DNA of 64,000 nucleotides from Escherichia phage vB_EcoM_ULIM9. Position 1 is the stretch's first letter. Every line of letters begins with the position of its first letter. The translations under genes were made by a program, and so were the position numbers. The stretch is taken from the sequence record OQ850288; one strand, 5' to 3'. Under the pieces are notes generated by a model. The model had not been told where the DNA came from. It saw only the letters and a list, made by a program, of their open reading frames with translations, and did not search any database. Below, in pieces: positions 9,193-45,885 of the stretch.

Positions 9193-9993
9193 TTAGTGCA
9201 GTTGCTCAGCATACTCTTTTTCAGCCATAGCTGAGATTTGCTTCACAAAATCATCACCGAAGTTAATGCGTAGTTTCTCTTCAATGATGGAAGCACCAAT
9301 GTTCACCAAAACATCATTGATTGCTTGCATACTGACGCCACCAGTCATCTCTTCAATGAACTCAATACTCACACCCATCATCTGTGAAAGTTGGATTAGT
9401 GCAACGATATTCATCATCGTAGAGATAGCTGGAATCATCAGTGCAACTTTCACCTGAAGCGGTTCTATATCAGCTACAGAGTCATTCTCAACAGCTTCTT
9501 CCAAAGACTCTTTAGTTTGCTGGATAATCTCCTTGATTCGTGGGTTTAGTTCTTCTACACCCCAATCAAGTTTTTCATATCGTGACAACTTCTCTTCCAT
9601 TCGCTTCTCAAGAGCAGCCATAACAGAACTGGTTGATGAAATTAACAGGTCAATTAGCTCATCATTACCTGCGAGTAGTAGCAAGTCTTTTTCTTCAGTG
9701 GTCATGGCAATATAGTCATTTTTCTGCATCTCATAAAAAATGAACTCTGCAAGAGCATCAACACCTACAACGATAGATGCTAAAGCAAGTGTTTTGTCGC
9801 AAAGCATCATGTTAACCTGTTCTGCAAAAGCACCGTTATCAGACTTGTCTTCAGGCAAGTTATAGCTTGAAGGCATAAACTGTTCTGTGTAGTTGTTGCC
9901 ACGAAGAATCATAGCCATGCTTTCTACGGCATTGATTAAGAATGCTTCATCAACACCTTTCTCTTCAAGCATCTTTTCTACATCGATATTCAT
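9193..9993 (-). CDS. hypothetical protein (266 aa)
   Basis: ORF track; no motif recognised. Confidence 0.5.
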   Translation of the reverse strand: MNIDVEKMLEEKGVDEAFLINAVESMAMILRGNNYTEQFMPSSYNLPEDKSDNGAFAEQVNMMLCDKTLALASIVVGVDALAEFIFYEMQKNDYIAMTTEEKDLLLLAGNDELIDLLISSTSSVMAALEKRMEEKLSRYEKLDWGVEELNPRIKEIIQQTKESLEEAVENDSVADIEPLQVKVALMIPAISTMMNIVALIQLSQMMGVSIEFIEEMTGGVSMQAINDVLVNIGASIIEEKLRINFGDDFVKQISAMAEKEYAEQLH

Positions 9994-37508: not shown

Positions 37509-37886
37509 TTACAGGCCAGTTGGTACGAAATCAATACCTTTAGCAGCCAGAGCTTTCTTGACTTCAGCAGCATCAACGCTTGATTCAAGAATTAGCAGGT
37601 CTTTTAGTTCTGCATCACGGTGGATACCAACAACTTTCAACTGACCGTGGTAAGACAGTTGCAGGTCTGCATAAAAGTTAACGATACATACAGAATCAGC
37701 CTGAGATTCTTCTCCTGCTGCAACTTTAGAGCCATCTGCTTTCAGAACTTCACCTACACGGTATTCTGTAGAAGCTTTTGGAGTGTACTCTTTGCGAGAG
37801 TGACCTGTTGGGGTAATCTGTTCCCAAAGAATGATATCATTCAGAGGTTCTCTGTTACCTAACTTAGTAAAACCTTGATATGCCAT
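37509..37886 (-). CDS. putative head decoration protein
   Basis: 125 aa; sits between prohead protease and major capsid genes. Confidence 0.35.
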   Translation of the reverse strand: MAYQGFTKLGNREPLNDIILWEQITPTGHSRKEYTPKASTEYRVGEVLKADGSKVAAGEESQADSVCIVNFYADLQLSYHGQLKVVGIHRDAELKDLLILESSVDAAEVKKALAAKGIDFVPTGL

Positions 37887-37897
37887 TATTGTGTTCC

Positions 37898-39244
37898 TTA
37901 TTTGATAAGAGATTTTAGAGCATTCTGGAGAGCCAGTTTGCGTTGTTCAGCGGTGTCTTCGGAAGCATTCTTAGCTGGTTCTTTTTCTTCTTCAACCAAA
38001 TCAGCTTCGCCGTCATTACCCACTTCTTCCATAGCGTTGGAATGTTCAAGAACAGCACCAGCAGTTTCTTTCAACTTGGTAATTTCTGATTCTTTTTCTT
38101 CCATTGCAGAAGCATGGGACGCGATAGTTTCATTAAGTTTCTGGTTAGCACCTTCCATAGCATTCATAAACAGAACGCTCAGAGGGTTATCAAGACCAGC
38201 ACCTAAAATAGTCGTTGCAGCTTCTTTTGCATCAAATCCAAAAGCTTCAGCAGAAGCAGAAATCTTATTAGTCAAATCTGACAAAGCAGCTTCCTGTTCT
38301 TTAGCTTTCATTTGAGCAACCTGAAGACGCAAAGCTTCTAGTTCTTGCTTTTCTTGTTCAGTCATTTCTTCACCTGAATTGTTAACGTTTAAACTTACAG
38401 GAGCCTCTTCAGAACCTTGTAAGTAATTTAAGAAATCATCTTGAGACATGATTGAGTTAATTAAACCAAGTTCAAGAGCTTCCTGAGCAGAATAAACATT
38501 CGCCTCAGTATTCTTTACAGCTTCTTCAGAGAGATTACGAGATTCAGCTACAAAACCTGTAAAGGTTGTGTAGGTATCATTAATTCTCTTTTGAAGTCTT
38601 TCTTTGCTTTCTTCTGAGAGTGCTTGGAATGGTGAACCCATACCTTTAAACTCACCAGCTTTGATGACGTTAATTGTTACGCCATTCTTTTCAAATGCCT
38701 TAGTTAATTCCTGATGAACCATAATTACACCAATAGAACCAACATCTGCATCTGGTGATGCAATAATTTCTTCAGCAGAAGATGCAAGAGCGTATGCAGC
38801 GGAACAAGCGAACTCATCTACATAAGCAATAATTTTCTTTTGGCCTCTTGAAGCCATAATGTGACGTGCTAATTCAAAGCAACCTGAAGCTTCACCACCA
38901 CCAGAATCAATGTGCAGAACGATAGTCTTAATTGACTCATCTGCTAAAGCTTCGTCAAAGCCTCTACGCAAACCTTCATAAGAGCTTAATCCACCTGTAC
39001 ACATTGCATCAATGAATGTCATACGATGGGTTAAACCACCCATAATAGGGATAATAGCAATGTCATCTTTTACTTTTAAAAGACTTCTTGCTTCACCTTT
39101 GGGTTTATCAAAGTTTACTGCTGCTTGGACATCACCCAGCAATCTGTTATTCACATAAGTTGCTGCTGAGTGAGCTAATGATTCAGTGGCTAGTAAAGGT
39201 TGGTTGAATAATCTATCAGCAAGTCTGAAGATATTCGAACTCAT
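37898..39244 (-). CDS. prohead protease (S49/ClpP-like) fused to acidic coiled-coil scaffold-like C-terminus
   Basis: 448 aa; N-terminal 270 aa carry peptidase-like blocks (HIDSGGGEASG, FACSAAYALASSAEEII); C-terminal 170 aa are E/K/A-rich. Confidence 0.55.
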   Translation of the reverse strand: MSSNIFRLADRLFNQPLLATESLAHSAATYVNNRLLGDVQAAVNFDKPKGEARSLLKVKDDIAIIPIMGGLTHRMTFIDAMCTGGLSSYEGLRRGFDEALADESIKTIVLHIDSGGGEASGCFELARHIMASRGQKKIIAYVDEFACSAAYALASSAEEIIASPDADVGSIGVIMVHQELTKAFEKNGVTINVIKAGEFKGMGSPFQALSEESKERLQKRINDTYTTFTGFVAESRNLSEEAVKNTEANVYSAQEALELGLINSIMSQDDFLNYLQGSEEAPVSLNVNNSGEEMTEQEKQELEALRLQVAQMKAKEQEAALSDLTNKISASAEAFGFDAKEAATTILGAGLDNPLSVLFMNAMEGANQKLNETIASHASAMEEKESEITKLKETAGAVLEHSNAMEEVGNDGEADLVEEEKEPAKNASEDTAEQRKLALQNALKSLIK

Positions 39245-39255
39245 TTTTACTCACC

Positions 39256-39588
39256 CTATTTGTTTAAATCTACAGAGACTGAAGAGATAACATAGATACC
39301 TTCTTCAGCAAAGAATTGAGGTTTGCTAAGAGCACCAGTTGCCACGCATTTATCGTTAGCATCCCACAAGCTATAGTGTGAGACCGTTGCAGAAGCTGGG
39401 ACAGTGATGTTAACTGTGTCTTCTGAGGCAATTAAGCCATTATCCGGTTCAGAAAAATAAATAGCCACTGGCTGAGTAACCTTATTTGCTGTAGGGTCTG
39501 CCGTTGGGTCTACATTGTGTAAAATAATAGTCGTTGGGGTTAGCGTGGCGAGGATTTTATTCTTACCATCAATAGTTAATGTTCCCAT
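39256..39588 (-). CDS. virion-associated hypothetical protein (110 aa)
   Basis: ORF track; in head module. Confidence 0.4.
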   Translation of the reverse strand: MGTLTIDGKNKILATLTPTTIILHNVDPTADPTANKVTQPVAIYFSEPDNGLIASEDTVNITVPASATVSHYSLWDANDKCVATGALSKPQFFAEEGIYVISSVSVDLNK

Positions 39589-40088
39589 TAATTAAACCTT
39601 ACTTTTTGTTTAAGGACTGTTGAATGGTTACCAGATTCATCTACCACATTTACAATCATAGCATATACTTTGCCTTTGACAAGTACTTTGTAATCATTTT
39701 GTGAAAAAATGTATTCAAGTCTGTTTGTTTCTTTATTAACTGTCATTGGAGATTGAAATGCAGTGTCGAGGGTAATGAAAGCGGCTTCAATGCTATTAAC
39801 ATTGATACGTTTATTCTCGCAGTTATATAACTTTACACCCAAAAGGCATGAACTGTCAAATGGAATTTTAACAATTTCACTACAATTTCCTGAAATAAAC
39901 GGTTTTCCACTCATTGGAGCATCAAGTAACCTGCAAATAGTGAAAACGTCAGAGGTTCCACCATCACTTACGTAACCTGAAAGGCTGACCCTTGAGCCAG
40001 CCTCTACAGATAATTTGTCAGTGATGATAAGAACACCTCTATACGAATGCACTCGTGTAGCATTTGAAATAGAGATAACTTCAGCCAT
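39588..40088 (-). CDS. virion-associated hypothetical protein (166 aa)
   Basis: ORF track; in head module. Confidence 0.4.
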   Translation of the reverse strand: MAEVISISNATRVHSYRGVLIITDKLSVEAGSRVSLSGYVSDGGTSDVFTICRLLDAPMSGKPFISGNCSEIVKIPFDSSCLLGVKLYNCENKRINVNSIEAAFITLDTAFQSPMTVNKETNRLEYIFSQNDYKVLVKGKVYAMIVNVVDESGNHSTVLKQKVRFN

Positions 40089-41563
40089 TATTTATTTGCC
40101 TTATTTGCTGTGCTTGGGTCTTTCGCTGAAGGTGTCTTTGCAGTACCTTCTCCAGCGGTCTTATAACCATCTCCTGAACGGCTTTGGCTATTTGGAGAAA
40201 GCTTTTCAGATACTGGCTGAGACTCATCAGCAGGAGGAAGACCAATATGCTCTCTAAGCTTGTTAGATAGCTCTTTGTCAACTTCCAAAGCACCTACTGC
40301 AACAGTCTTCTGGATATAAGAACCAATTACTTCAAGGTCTGGGGTTTCGATATCATCATATGTGATTTGTACATGTTCTTCATCGTCCCACATATTAAGA
40401 GCATAAGTCTGTGCAACTAAATCACGGTTAATTACGTTCTTAATTTGCTTCAGCAGAATATCTACTGACATTGCTAGTAAGCTTGTCTTAGAATCTGCAA
40501 GAGAGAATGAACCGTATTTTGACTGACCCATAGCAAGAATATCTGACATAAATGCCATCATAATCTGCTTAGAATATCTGTCAATAATAGAACCTGTATC
40601 GTATGCTTTAGCACCCTGTCTAGAAACTAATGAGAACTCAAAAATATCCTCTTTAGTATCTGGGTCGATATATCTAGGCCAGATTAAACCTGCTCTATCA
40701 TTAGCAATCATATCGTTAACAACAGTTTTGCAGTATTGTACGAAAGCTTTCTTTTCAGGTTCTGCATTTTCATCCAGATAATCTGGTGGTAAACCAATCT
40801 TTGGCATACCTACCAAGTCTCTTGAAACACCAACGGCTTCGTACTCTTCAATCTGAACTTTATACTTCCACGGTACATAGGCATTAAGTAATGGTGAACG
40901 ACCTTCTGGGTTTCCATATTCATCATCATACTTAAACAGCATGAATTTAGCTCGTGGAAGTTTTCTTGTTAGTGGCCTTTCTCCGAGATTAATTGCCCCA
41001 GCAATATGTGAAACATTTCTCAGATTCTGTCTAACACCAGTAACTTTTCTAAAGTCTTCGTCAAAATACCACTTATCAAGTGTTGATTGGTTTCTGATTG
41101 GTAATTTAGCCCATCCAATCAGACCATCATCAAATTTTGACTGGTACTTTCCTTTTTTACCCTGTCGCTTCTTATAAACTTTCTCGTTAACACAGAACCC
41201 ATAAGTGCAGAATGACATTACAGAATTAATAAAATCTGCCCAATCATGCTCCATGTCATCCATTAAAGAATTAAAGAAGTCTGCTCTTTCAAGCATTTTA
41301 GGGTCTTGCTCTTTTCCCTTTGGAGGTACGAATCTCCAGTTGACTTTTCTGACAAACATCTTAATAATATTTACAGATGCTGCTACAGCAGGGTCACGCA
41401 TCATTAATTGGAAAGTTTTAATACTTTCAGGGAACCTTAGTGCCTGACGAGGTTCTTCATAGATTCTTCCATTCTTAACCTTCAGACCCAAAGAACCTAC
41501 TTCACCCATTCTAAATGGTGGTAAGCTTTCTTGTGTTTCTGTAATATCTGCCATTCTTCTCAC
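40088..41563 (-). CDS. portal protein
   Basis: 491 aa; directly downstream of large terminase, upstream of protease. Confidence 0.6.
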   Translation of the reverse strand: MRRMADITETQESLPPFRMGEVGSLGLKVKNGRIYEEPRQALRFPESIKTFQLMMRDPAVAASVNIIKMFVRKVNWRFVPPKGKEQDPKMLERADFFNSLMDDMEHDWADFINSVMSFCTYGFCVNEKVYKKRQGKKGKYQSKFDDGLIGWAKLPIRNQSTLDKWYFDEDFRKVTGVRQNLRNVSHIAGAINLGERPLTRKLPRAKFMLFKYDDEYGNPEGRSPLLNAYVPWKYKVQIEEYEAVGVSRDLVGMPKIGLPPDYLDENAEPEKKAFVQYCKTVVNDMIANDRAGLIWPRYIDPDTKEDIFEFSLVSRQGAKAYDTGSIIDRYSKQIMMAFMSDILAMGQSKYGSFSLADSKTSLLAMSVDILLKQIKNVINRDLVAQTYALNMWDDEEHVQITYDDIETPDLEVIGSYIQKTVAVGALEVDKELSNKLREHIGLPPADESQPVSEKLSPNSQSRSGDGYKTAGEGTAKTPSAKDPSTANKANK

Positions 41564-43394: not shown

Positions 43395-43518
43395 TATGTT
43401 TTCTCCAAATAATTAATATTGTTTCCCCTTAAAAAAGACGGCACAGAGACCGTCAAGGAGAAACCACAATGTACGTCAGAGACATACTGTATAAGTCTTC
43501 CTATAAAGTATAACTCTG

Positions 43519-43580
43519 TAAAAAAGCCCTGTCTAAAAATACTCTTCGGTAGCGAAAGGAAGAATACTTATAGCAGGGCA
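43519..43580 (-). terminator. long hairpin plus U-tract downstream of the tRNA array
   Basis: AGCCCTG...CAGGGC outer stem (43525-43579); on minus strand followed by TTTTTT. Confidence 0.4.
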
Positions 43581-43605
43581 TTATTATTATTTTAATTGAG
43601 AGAGA

Positions 43606-43681
43606 GTAAAATAACTTGGAGAATCCGAAGGGACTCGAACCCTTATAAACCTGTTTTGCAGACAGGCACATAGCCATTTCT
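43606..43681 (-). tRNA. tRNA-Cys (anticodon GCA), CCA encoded
   Basis: Hand fold: acceptor GAATCCG/CGGATTC, anticodon loop CUGCAAA, T-arm with TTCGAGT. Confidence 0.55.
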
Positions 43682-43685
43682 GTCA

Positions 43686-43778
43686 CGGATTCAAATTGGA
43701 GGAAGATACCAGACTTGAACTGGTACACCGATTTCTCAGCTACTGGCAGTTTAGCAAACTGCTCCCTTACCTTTTAGG
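43686..43778 (-). tRNA. tRNA-Ser (anticodon GCU), type II long variable arm
   Basis: 93 nt; acceptor GGAAGAT/ATCTTCC, anticodon stem GCAGT/ACTGC with loop UUGCUAA, long variable arm, T-loop TTCAAGT. Confidence 0.55.
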
Positions 43779-43791
43779 GTTAATCTTCCAT

Positions 43792-44526
43792 TTATTTCTG
43801 TAATGCGCTCTTCATTTCTGGTGTTGCAATAGTGTCAATCACACCAGTTTTACAGGCATCGTCAAACCAGTCTGGTAAGATACCTGCTAAGAACCCATTG
43901 ATATTCGTTTTAAGGTACTCTGCAATAAGGGCAGCTTCTTCTTCAATCATCTGCACAACTTCATCTGCATAAGCTGTAATCTTTGAAATACCTTCATTAA
44001 TCTTACTGACAGCTTGGTTAGCTAAATCAGAAACAGTATCAAGACCCTTATCAATAGCATCTTGTAAGTCACTTAACACACCGTTAACACTGTCTAGTGT
44101 GCTGTTAATCATGTCAATAGCTTGCTGACCATACTCTGTAGCAACACCCATAATACCACTAAATGGTGTACAACCAACTTGTTCTCCTGCTGCACCCATA
44201 ACATTGGAATACCCCTTTGCTACCTGCATACGTGATGAAAACTCATCAATAGACTTTTGACCATAGTCTGTTAGGGTCTTAGTAGTTGCTGTAGTGCTTG
44301 TCAGGCTTGTTGTAAAGCTGTTTAGAAGGACTGTTGTAAGTCCAGCAGCAACAAGCTTCTCCTTCATTGTAGGGTCTGTTACAGAGCTAATAGAGCTTAC
44401 AAGTGATGTAGAGGCAGCTACGGTTCCACCGAGAACTGCTGCACCAGTAATAAGTGGGTTAGAAAACCCTTTACCGGTTTTTAAGAGATTAAAAATCTCC
44501 TTACCTTGTTCTGTCATCTCTTTCAT
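43792..44526 (-). CDS. hypothetical S/T-rich protein embedded in tRNA array
   Basis: ORF track frame 43792-44742 trimmed to Met at 44524-44526 (MKEMTEQ) because the upstream 72 codons run through two tRNA genes. Confidence 0.5.
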   Translation of the reverse strand: MKEMTEQGKEIFNLLKTGKGFSNPLITGAAVLGGTVAASTSLVSSISSVTDPTMKEKLVAAGLTTVLLNSFTTSLTSTTATTKTLTDYGQKSIDEFSSRMQVAKGYSNVMGAAGEQVGCTPFSGIMGVATEYGQQAIDMINSTLDSVNGVLSDLQDAIDKGLDTVSDLANQAVSKINEGISKITAYADEVVQMIEEEAALIAEYLKTNINGFLAGILPDWFDDACKTGVIDTIATPEMKSALQK

Positions 44527-44542
44527 TAAGCACCTTTGAAAT

Positions 44543-44618
44543 TGGTAGTCCAGTGGGATTTGAACCCTCTTCTCATGTTTTTCAGACACGCGCTTTACCA
44601 TATAAGCTACTTGGACTA
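44543..44618 (-). tRNA. tRNA-Phe (anticodon GAA)
   Basis: Anticodon loop CUGAAAA, T-arm GGTTCAAATCC. Confidence 0.5.
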
Positions 44619-44623
44619 TAAAT

Positions 44624-44699
44624 TGGGGTGACCTACGGGATTTGAACCCGTATAGACCATGTTCACAGCATGGGTCATTACCATTTATGATAAGGCCAC
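44624..44699 (-). tRNA. tRNA-His (anticodon GUG)
   Basis: Anticodon stem CCATG/CATGG with loop CUGUGAA; T-arm ACGGG/CCCGT. Confidence 0.55.
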
Positions 44700-44730
44700 A
44701 TTTAAGGACTCTCGTAAGAACCCTTAGAAG

Positions 44731-44806
44731 TGGCAGCGGCATAAGGATTTGAACCTTAATAGGACAGCTTCAGAGACTGCTGCATTGCCAGTTATGCTAT
44801 ACCGCT
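44731..44806 (-). tRNA. tRNA-Gln (anticodon CUG), tentative
   Basis: D-arm GCAT/ATGC, anticodon loop CUCUGAA, T-arm TAAGG/CCTTA. Confidence 0.45.
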
Positions 44807-44811
44807 AAAAT

Positions 44812-44882
44812 TGGTACTCCATATCGGATTCGAACCGATACATAACACAGATTTTAAGTCTGGCCTCTCTGCCAATTGGAGT
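44812..44882 (-). tRNA. tRNA, anticodon read as UAA (Leu-type) but short variable arm; isotype uncertain
   Basis: 71 nt; T-arm ATCGG/CCGAT perfect; anticodon loop CUUAAAA. Confidence 0.4.
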
Positions 44883-44892
44883 AATGGAGCAT

Positions 44893-44968
44893 TGGCGGGG
44901 GATGTTGGAATTGAACCAACTTCTTCGATTTCAAAGACCGAGGTTTTAACCTTGTAAACTAATCCCCT
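44893..44968 (-). tRNA. tRNA-Gln (anticodon UUG), tentative
   Basis: D-stem GTTT/AAAC, anticodon loop CUUUGAA, T-arm GTTGG/CCAAC. Confidence 0.45.
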
Positions 44969-44976
44969 TTAATTCT

Positions 44977-45534
44977 TTACTTTCTCAGTGGATGAATAAA
45001 GAATGCCAACATAACTCTTTCCCTTGAGAATGCTCTTTCTTCTGGGACAACACTTTTTAGTTTCCATCCAATATAAATTCTCCAGTAAAACTGTTTACCA
45101 AAGACTTTAATTGATGGGATAAAAGCGAATAATCCCCAAGCATTACTGTTCCACATTAGGAGATAACCAGTCTGATTATCTTCAGGGTCAGAACTTACGT
45201 TGATATTACCTTTCCACTTAGTAACATCTTTGACATCTCTTCCTAATACATGGTAAGAGAAGTTATAAGCTTTGTTTCTCCAGAGCCATCCGACTCTCTG
45301 CATGTAGACACCAAACTTACCAATCTTTCTAATCTTAGCCCATCTTTTAACGTGACCTTCATCACCATCAATCGGGTTGTCATAGGTTTCCATCCATCTG
45401 AATCCAAAAGGTAGATGTCCTTTCTTCTCACTGTAGAATGGAACTACGAAAGGTGCTAAGATGACTGCTAGGGTTGCTGCAAATGGTTCTAGTAAAGCTA
45501 GGAAAATCCATGAAGCATACTTCAAATATCTCAT
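44977..45534 (-). CDS. membrane protein embedded in tRNA array
   Basis: 185 aa; N-terminal hydrophobic helix (WIFLALLEPFAATLAVILAPFVVPF). Confidence 0.5.
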   Translation of the reverse strand: MRYLKYASWIFLALLEPFAATLAVILAPFVVPFYSEKKGHLPFGFRWMETYDNPIDGDEGHVKRWAKIRKIGKFGVYMQRVGWLWRNKAYNFSYHVLGRDVKDVTKWKGNINVSSDPEDNQTGYLLMWNSNAWGLFAFIPSIKVFGKQFYWRIYIGWKLKSVVPEERAFSRERVMLAFFIHPLRK

Positions 45535-45553
45535 CTAAATAGCCTCTTAAAAT

Positions 45554-45631
45554 TGGTGTTCCAAGACGGATTCGAACCGTCACTAATACAAGGTTTGAGC
45601 TTGCATCCTCTGCCAATTGGGATACTGGAAC
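45554..45631 (-). tRNA. tRNA, anticodon read as CAA; isotype uncertain
   Basis: T-arm GACGG/CCGTC; anticodon stem GCAAG/CTTGT with loop CUCAAAC. Confidence 0.4.
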
Positions 45632-45632
45632 A

Positions 45633-45707
45633 TGGTACTCACTAAAGGACTTGAGCCTTTTTCTTCATCTTGTAAGGGTGATGTTTTACCATATAAACTA
45701 AGCGAGT
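45633..45707 (-). tRNA. tRNA-Val (anticodon UAC), tentative
   Basis: D-stem GTTT/AAAC, anticodon loop CUUACAA, T-stem AAAGG/CCTTT. Confidence 0.45.
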
Positions 45708-45802
45708 GTGAAAGAGGTCTGAAGTTGTGCCGCTAACTCAACTCCGTGGAATTTGTTACGGTCTTCAGTTGACACCAGCGGTCTTTCACTTGACCTCTGA
45801 AT

Positions 45803-45879
45803 TGGTGCTGCTCACAGGACTCGAACCTGCATTTCCATCCTTACAAGGGATGTGTAATAGCCAATTATACGAAAGCAGC
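45803..45879 (-). tRNA. tRNA-Thr (anticodon UGU)
   Basis: Anticodon stem CATCC/GGATG perfect, loop CUUGUAA; T-loop TTCGAGT. Confidence 0.55.
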
Positions 45880-45885
45880 TTTATT

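Follow-up and report, generated by a model that had tools for sequence, protein, structure and literature searches.

A likely scaffold domain and a probable nested gene in the prohead protease gene of Felix O1-like phages

Which protein scaffolds the head of Felix O1-like phages? The authors of the Felix O1 virion proteome supposed that the protease gp56 removes "the scaffold," with none named (PMC3185647), and the word scaffold is never used in the structure papers on Bas63 (PMC12609058) and Sf14. We considered this question in a 64-kb stretch of DNA from Escherichia phage vB_EcoM_ULIM9 (OQ850288; here, the window), which represents part of a genome of ~86 to 88 kb. A first-pass annotation of the gp56 gene in the window had proposed a combined protease-scaffold protein. 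In our reading, to which we assign a probability of roughly 0.6, this gene does in Felix O1-like phages what C/Nu3 does in lambda, with a nested start at Met294 and a C-terminal scaffold domain.

The gene, its protease domain, and its acidic tail

Over a 6-kb stretch surrounding the gene, the DNA shares 98% identity with numerous Felix O1-like myophages of the genus Felixounavirus. Used as a query, this stretch matched 276 phage records, 252 of which span most of it, and in related records the gene is labeled "head maturation protease," corresponding to Felix O1 gp56. The open reading frame is intact from ATG to TAA. It belongs to the head module, where it lies after the portal gene and is followed by the decoration gene and then by the gene of the gpE-type capsid protein (Table 1).

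Table 1 Features of the prohead protease gene and of its head-module neighbors (positions in the window)
Feature	Coordinates	Strand	Description
Full-length gene	37898..39244	-	448 aa, 48.3 kDa, pI 4.7; Felix O1 gp56/lambda gpC homolog; S49 prohead protease with C-terminal helical domain
N-terminal segment, residues 1-55	39080..39244	-	F-N-x-P-L-L-x-T-E motif
S49/SppA-fold peptidase domain, residues ~56-275	38420..39079	-	Pfam, SppA match, model
Variable linker, residues 276-293	38366..38419	-	Disordered; contains AGGTGA
Candidate internal ribosome-binding site AGGTGA	38370..38375	-	4 nt upstream of ATG 38363-38365
Proposed nested in-frame gene, Met294 (ATG 38363-38365) to shared stop	37898..38365	-	155 aa, 16.7 kDa, pI 4.5; putative scaffolding protein, positional analog of lambda Nu3
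C-terminal helical core	38042..38359	-	Predicted helices 296-335, 339-349, 354-401; pLDDT >90
Disordered, strongly acidic linker, residues 402-431	37952..38041	-	Net charge -9
Terminal helix, residues 432-447	37904..37951	-	R435-x-x-A438-L439-x-x-A442-L443 motif
Neighbor: beta-tulip decoration protein (Bas63 Dec), 125 aa	37509..37886	-	Position of lambda gpD
Neighbor: lambda gpE-type major capsid protein, 368 aa	36369..37475	-	Pfam Phage_cap_E
Neighbor: whisker, 110 aa	39256..39588	-	Pfam Gp80, PHROG 240; virion neck protein
Neighbor: collar, 166 aa	39588..40088	-	Bas63 collar; Cys52/69/90 present
Neighbor: Mu-type portal protein (Portal_Mu)	40088..41563	-	Pfam, PHROG

The Pfam family Peptidase_S49 (PF01343) matched residues 134 to 275 with a score of 134.3 bits (cutoff, 24.9; E = 4.6e-39), and PHROG 53, "head maturation protease," spans the whole 448-aa protein (E = 7.7e-118). 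The protease of lambda gpC is homologous over residues 46 to 299 (33% identity, E = 1e-38), and the motif of the N-terminal segment is also present in lambda gpC, with N14, P16, and L17 invariant. The sole solved sequence relatives of the protease are B. subtilis and E. coli SppA, the former (3rst) matched by sequence at an E value of 3e-20. An AlphaFold2 model of the 448-aa protein, built from 60 homologs, has a pLDDT of >90 across the protease domain; Foldseek matched this domain to SppA structures 3rst and 4kwb at an E value of ~1e-18, with a target-normalized TM score of 0.82 to 0.84 and an rmsd of 2.1 to 2.4 Å. Candidate catalytic residues Ser148 (38801-38803) and Lys200 (38645-38647) are invariant among the 60 homologs. 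The residue invariant in the phage proteins is K200, whereas the catalytic Lys of B. subtilis SppA aligns with K195. In the alignment with lambda gpC, Ser148 and Lys200 fall opposite Ser166 and Lys218, which we take to be the active site (UniProt P03711). Judged by these sequence matches and the predicted fold, the full-length product belongs to the S49 Ser-Lys prohead proteases of SppA/ClpP fold, with proteolysis predicted, and the peptidase-like N-terminal part recognized in the first-pass annotation stands.

The same annotation described the C-terminal part as rich in E, K, A, and L, with heptad character. Residues 276 to 448 consist of 17% E, 16% A, 10% L, and 8% K (E+K+A+L, 51%, versus 34% in the N-terminal part), with a pI of 4.4 and a net charge of -19. 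In the AlphaFold2 model the linker is disordered at residues 279 to 291 (pLDDT <50), helices begin at residue 296, and the helical core is followed by the disordered acidic segment and the terminal helix. The last 155 residues are, in this model, a separate acidic helical domain, and the acidic and helical character of the region is confirmed at the level of composition and predicted structure. Less was left of the heptads. The best 28-residue a/d score was 0.69, versus 0.54 ± 0.08 in shuffles, and was reached by 26 of 500 shuffles in a homemade test distinct from COILS and MARCOIL; the coiled-coil label is only marginally supported. The best-conserved motif of the tail lies in the terminal helix, and residues 432 to 448 carry a net charge of +3. 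We consider this helix, whose amphipathicity did not differ from that of shuffles, a candidate capsid-protein-binding element.

A candidate in-frame start at the domain boundary

The alignment with lambda gpC stops at the boundary between protease and tail, where SGEEM294TEQ(EK) lies opposite lambda SGGRM309TKE(TQ). The ATG of lambda Met309 follows caGGAGGgcga, and 131 residues remain, the length of the Nu3 scaffold, which lambda produces by initiating translation within gene C. The lambda RefSeq record places the nu3 start at Met239 instead. The sequence at the internal start of the ULIM9 gene is cAGGTGAagaaATG; its AGGTGA is predicted to pair with the anti-Shine-Dalgarno (anti-SD) tail of 16S rRNA at -8.4 kcal/mol, versus -8.5 kcal/mol at the gene's own start, with a spacer of 4 nt.

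An alignment of 30 Ounavirinae-like sequences, with tail identities of 28 to 88%, has just 4 invariant columns in the tail. Met294 is among them, although it sits in an otherwise variable, disordered linker. We compared the DNA of 14 diverse genes, drawn from Felixounavirus, Suspvirus, and Mooglevirus, from Hafnia, Erwinia, Yersinia, and Pectobacterium phages, from metagenomic contigs, and from lambda. AGG occurs 7 to 14 nt upstream of the boundary ATG in 12 of the 14 genes, and one further gene has GAGG one base nearer the ATG; across the in-frame positions of these genes, the background frequency is 8.4%. The AGG is found in two codon phases, encoding SG, TG, QV, QE, or EE, and its retention while the residues change suggests a constraint at the RNA level. 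The 60-nt window at the internal start ranks within the least-structured 1 to 17% of windows in every one of the 14 genes.

We also surveyed 87 loci encoding S49 prohead proteases, comprising 62 "long" proteases with a tail of at least 111 residues (40 after clustering at 80% identity) and 25 "short" ones. With an SD threshold of ≤-5 kcal/mol and a boundary zone defined as 5 to 30 residues past the end of the protease domain, an in-frame ATG preceded by an SD occurs in this zone in 31 of the 40 nonredundant long proteases. Per codon, such starts are 4.3 times as frequent there as elsewhere in the genes (Fisher P = 1e-10, a value that overstates independence because the compared sequences are related), and an SD precedes 33 of 39 ATGs in the boundary zone versus 117 of 399 elsewhere. 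The pattern is consistent, and it includes lambda, the sole experimentally established case.

These observations bear directly on the alternative that survives best, in which the full-length fusion is the sole product and does both jobs, as in P2 gpO. Met294 would then be kept structurally, as the start of helix 1, and the purine run would represent the Gly/Glu codons of the acidic linker. P2 provides the precedent, being reported to have a fused protease-scaffold protein and no separate scaffold (PMC8508860), and several features of the Felix O1-like genes fit: SD-like glycine codons also precede other internal Met codons (M75 and M202), at poorer spacing; in the Hafnia and Pectobacterium-like branches, pairing of the boundary SD-like element is weak, at -3.4 to -4.3 kcal/mol; and the related phage records listed carry no annotated nested CDS. 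A structural role for Met294 does not, however, sit well with an invariant Met in a variable and disordered linker, and codon choice in the linker does not predict an AGG that is retained in two phases while encoding different residues. The enrichment of boundary ATGs with an SD extends across 40 diverged genes, including that of lambda with its established nested product, and weak mRNA structure at the site is common to all 14 genes. We consider it unlikely that the fusion acts alone. Under the preferred reading, the gene as a counterpart of C/Nu3, the 155-aa C-terminal domain is probably also made by itself from the internal Met294 start, as suggested by these sequence features and by analogy with lambda.

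A search for an internal promoter or terminator near the domain boundary found no excess over shuffles. The original record of Felix O1 includes a further CDS for this gene, which we considered as a nested scaffold and rejected, as it is an alternative N-terminal start (GTG31).

Scaffold candidates and relatives of the tail

The first-pass annotation saw no separate scaffold gene between portal and capsid, and this observation holds. Bas63 cryo-EM places the collar, the whisker, and the beta-tulip decoration protein in the mature virion (PMC12609058), and because all three are virion parts, the interval contains no separate scaffold gene. A scaffold encoded at 39256-40088, the finding that had been named as contrary to a combined protein, is ruled out, since the genes there are those of the collar and whisker. 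The 125-aa decoration protein has no sequence similarity to lambda gpD by BLASTP; its likeness to gpD rests on the published beta-tulip structure (PMC12609058). In databases its gene is mislabeled "tail protease."

The capsid protein does not appear to carry its own scaffold: Phage_cap_E covers residues 12 to 362 of 368, and a match that spans nearly the whole protein leaves no room for an N-terminal delta/scaffold domain. The only other sizeable acidic, helix-prone ORF in the window (9193-9993; 266 aa, pI 4.2) was rejected as a scaffold candidate, as it matches PHROG 4251, "minor tail protein," and lies 28 kb away. The related phage records listed, and 18 kb of the RefSeq record of VpaE1, contain no scaffold annotation. 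The virion proteome of Felix O1 included the collar, whisker, and decoration proteins but not gp56, and the capsid protein appeared uncleaved (PMC3185647); gp56 is also missing from the Bas63 cryo-EM gene-product list.

The short relatives in our survey show what else can occupy this position. All 25 stop 2 to 26 residues past the protease domain, and at most of these loci a separate acidic gene (180 to 237 aa, pI 4.1 to 5.1) begins 2 to 45 nt after the protease stop and is followed by a decoration-sized gene. Where a gpE-type capsid gene was detected, it lies 950 to 1450 nt downstream in 15 of 16 short loci, versus 80 to 730 nt in nearly all long loci. The separate genes of the short loci were matched by a profile built from lambda-type tails (hhalign probability, 98.3%; E = 1.2e-14) through the motif AER-RI..I...EA-GRE..A..LA..T-MS-E-A. 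Lambda-type tails are thus homologous to the separate genes, and the scaffold module occurs both fused and split, always in the same slot.

The Felix O1-type tail belongs elsewhere. Pfam and PHROGs searches with residues 294 to 448 alone returned nothing below an E value of 0.09, and jackhmmer against the 62 other C-terminal extensions and the ORFs downstream of short protease genes returned Ounavirinae tails only. When the tail was compared by hhalign with two Nu3-type profiles and a free-standing scaffold profile, the probability was ≤0.1%. Foldseek against PDB and BFVD gave no match with an E value of <0.5 outside the tail's own clade, the remainder being nonspecific helical proteins (PspA/Vipp1, E ~1). 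A phmmer search of 1.84 billion representative proteins gave 3 matches and no convincing stand-alone homolog, and a word-index search for free-standing homologs gave 4 matches. One 152-aa match (P0003) was rejected as a natural split gene, being a gene call on a low-coverage contig with a broken upstream frame. In sequence terms, the Felix O1-type tail is a module of a different family from the Nu3 type, with no homology detectable.

Because the tail lacks homology to known scaffolds, its role as a scaffold rests on position, composition, architecture, the lack of an alternative, and absence from the virion. The tail has some traits expected of a scaffold, with a pI of 4.5, predicted helices of 40 and 48 residues, and a location 390 nt upstream of the capsid gene. 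Taken with the fission and fusion of the module in relatives, these properties suggest that the acidic helical tail most likely acts as a capsid assembly scaffold.

The lack of homology to any known scaffold also favors a second alternative, in which the C-terminal domain only targets or oligomerizes the protease, binding the portal or the capsid interior like other prohead-protease tails, and the scaffold is encoded elsewhere or needless. The window covers 64 kb of the genome and a distant scaffold gene is possible; moreover, Nu3, the lambda scaffold that is degraded by C, is itself also required for portal incorporation (PMC3224144). A T=9 shell of 535 gpE-type subunits (PMC12609058) that lack a delta domain is nevertheless expected to need a scaffold (PMC10275583), and none is annotated in the records named above. 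In addition, 155 residues with two helices of 40 to 48 residues far exceed a targeting peptide, and in relatives the same slot holds a true Nu3-type module, fused or split. A tail devoted to targeting is, in our estimate, quite improbable. We regard as very improbable a tail that regulates or inhibits the peptidase, for example by blocking the active site until assembly, and has no assembly role: the region is attached through a flexible linker, and SppA crystal structures, in the words of the title of entry 4kwb, show C termini in active sites and self-processing, but a conserved internal start would make no sense, the size and long-helix architecture are unlike those of a short inhibitory peptide, and in split relatives the equivalent module has a gene to itself, one that looks abundantly expressed.

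The combined protease-scaffold protein of the first-pass annotation is therefore retained in part. Both domains are present, and the head module offers no other candidate, but the description is incomplete: it missed the arrangement of lambda gpC/Nu3, and the evidence suggests a nested Met294 gene in addition to the fusion.

Proposed assembly pathway and comparison with known systems

If the gene is a counterpart of C/Nu3, head assembly in Felix O1-like phages might proceed as follows. Ribosomes would initiate at the start of the full-length gene and also at the in-frame Met294 ATG, through its own AGGTGA Shine-Dalgarno sequence, so that internal initiation would supply the free 16.7-kDa C-terminal domain in larger amounts than the full-length protein. 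Inside the T=9 shell, which is built of gpE-type capsid protein, this domain would serve as the scaffold, its helical core self-associating and its terminal R-x-x-A-L-x-x-A-L helix touching the capsid protein from a flexible acidic tether. A few protease molecules would join the procapsid because the protease carries the same C-terminal domain as the free product. Before DNA packaging or in the course of it, the protease would then degrade both the scaffold and itself, with neither left in the virion.

A more tentative proposal, which we advance with some reserve, extends this pathway to the whole subfamily: Ounavirinae may build T=9 heads on a helical scaffold of ~155 aa from an unrecognized sequence and structure family, expressed from a conserved internal start in the protease gene, with this module having replaced the Nu3 type at the same site. 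If so, S49 prohead protease genes would have in their 3' half a "scaffold slot" whose content can be exchanged, and the nested start would be older than the module that it drives.

The nesting of protease and scaffold has been known in lambda since 1980, and P2, Mu, and herpesviruses also have arrangements of this general kind; PMC8508860 cites Shaw & Murialdo 1980 for the C/Nu3 overlap in lambda. The Felix O1-type arrangement changes no concept, and the labels "protease C / scaffolding domain Nu3" and "capsid assembly protease C" are already attached to relatives in some database records. What appears to be unstated for Felix O1-like phages is that the tail is the likely scaffold, that Met294 likely starts a nested gene, and that the module is unrelated to Nu3 in sequence. 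If correct, this assignment would fill an annotation gap, as the Felix O1 genome and proteome paper and the Bas63 and Sf14 structures name no scaffolding protein, in a group of widely used therapeutic and typing phages. Work on procapsids, and the engineering of Felix O1-like capsids, would gain a concrete target in the nested gene. For S49 prohead proteases more broadly, the results suggest an annotation rule: look for a conserved boundary ATG with an SD, and expect a scaffold module that may be split or fused, with nonhomologous modules in one slot.

Among known systems, SppA (MEROPS S49) shares the fold and the catalytic Ser with the Felix O1-type protease and differs in being a membrane-associated oligomeric peptidase without a scaffold tail. 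In Mu (gpI/gpZ) and in herpesviruses (UL26/UL26.5), protease and scaffold have their C-terminal region in common. These systems and P2 gpO resemble the Felix O1 type in this common region, with or without a nested in-frame product, and are likened to it by arrangement only; P2 gpO and Mu gpI are not S49 proteases, and herpesvirus assemblin has its own fold.

Short S49 proteases with a separate Nu3-like gene (IMG/VR loci such as L016, L022, L027, and L048) belong to the same protease family, with 31 to 41% identity. There, as here, the scaffold module directly follows the protease domain and is succeeded by decoration-sized and gpE-type capsid genes. The module in those loci is a free-standing gene of the Nu3 family, whereas in the Felix O1 type it is fused in frame and belongs to another sequence family.

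The lambda capsid is T=7. That of the Felix O1 type, a myovirus, is T=9 (PMC12609058), and its nested product is putative where that of lambda is established. The two systems also differ in that collar and whisker genes are inserted between portal and protease in the Felix O1 type, and in that its tail, predicted to form long helices and a terminal R..AL..AL helix, is without detectable Nu3-type homology (hhalign probability, 0.1%) and without the AER-RI..I...EA-GRE motif. Besides homologous proteases, lambda and the Felix O1 type both have the same Ser/Lys pair and an N-terminal F-N-x-P-L motif; both have the gene order of portal, protease/scaffold, beta-tulip decoration protein, and gpE-type capsid protein; both have an internal Met with an SD at the aligned position (Met294 versus Met309); and the tails that follow are of similar size, 155 aa in the Felix O1 type and 131 aa in lambda.

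Split and fused Nu3-type scaffold modules

Among the IMG/VR loci compared, most S49 prohead proteases without a C-terminal tail are followed by a separate acidic gene that begins 2 to 45 nt downstream (L016, L022, L027, L029, L032, L035, L048, L052, L064, L078, and others). This separate gene is homologous to the Nu3-type tail of lambda (hhalign, 98.3%), showing that the scaffold module underwent both fission and fusion inside one protease family. In both L038 and L067, S49 protease, a linker of approximately 180 residues, and capsid protein occupy one frame; these two frames are similar to a fusion of protease, scaffold, and capsid protein known from Pseudomonas phage MD8.

In six loci (L068, L084, L073, L082, L083, and L088), the protease tails carry the Nu3-type motif EAKGREQLA..LA..PGMTVEQAK.LLAAAP in three to four tandem copies. 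These tails form extensions of 212 to 249 residues and may represent a scaffold of variable length.

Features of the window and of two compared loci
Feature	Position	Strand	Basis or setting
S49 protease, ~180-residue linker, and capsid protein (Phage_capsid_4), single open frame	L038:2420-4804		
S78 protease, S49 protease, and HK97-type capsid domain, single open frame, 1065 codons	L067:1601-4795		
Decoration protein, 125-aa ORF	37509-37886	-	Matches PHROG 4146; decoration role from Bas63 cryo-EM
Protease residues 195-200, candidate general-base region	38645-38662	-	Alignment with SppA
Protease residues 1-55, motif F-N-x-P-L-L-x-T-E	39080-39244	-	Outside Pfam S49 model
Collar (166 aa; cysteines 52, 69, and 90) and whisker (110 aa) of the neck	39256-40088	-	Portal-protease interval
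21 tRNA genes, one block	43617-48295	-	

Start sites and conserved residues of the protease

In the lambda RefSeq record (NC_001416; locus L002), nu3 is annotated from Met239 of C (201 aa; L002:2333-2938), and the strong GGAGG site belongs to Met309 of C (131 aa; L002:2543-2938); the start conserved across the family lies at the position of Met309 rather than at the RefSeq Met239. Public start calls for the Felix O1-type protease gene disagree among records, with inconsistent calls seen in AF320576, P0001/P0002, and L097. The original Felix O1 record (AF320576; locus L003) has two coding sequences, from ATG1 (L003:1622-2968) and GTG31 (L003:1712-2968), some records annotate Met175 as the start (274-275 aa), and on one low-coverage contig the tail alone is called from the Met294 equivalent (152 aa).

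The N-terminal motif is common to lambda gpC and the Felix O1-like proteases, with N14, P16, and L17 invariant. K195 of the window protease aligns with the "IKSG" lysine of Bacillus subtilis SppA, the general base of that enzyme. K195 is not kept among the phage enzymes (lambda has Tyr at this position). K200 does not vary across 60 phage homologues, and the general base of the phage enzymes may therefore sit elsewhere than in SppA.

Neighboring genes and comparison with lambda

The tRNA block directly precedes the terminase region, and both are on one strand. A mechanically called ORF (43501-43728) overlaps tRNA-Cys and tRNA-Ser and probably does not represent a gene.

The 125-aa ORF is named "tail protease" by both its PHROG label and RefSeq records, and its counterpart in the related phage Bas63 is a trimeric beta-tulip capsid decoration protein by cryo-EM (PMC12609058). 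BLASTP found no similarity between this ORF and the lambda decoration protein gpD; the two share the same gene position. The whisker weakly matches Pfam Gp80 (podophage GP4 fibre I), and the collar gene is far longer (342 to 729 aa) in more distant relatives (L089 and L092-L096). Relative to the lambda gene order, the window has two extra genes, collar and whisker, inserted between portal and protease.
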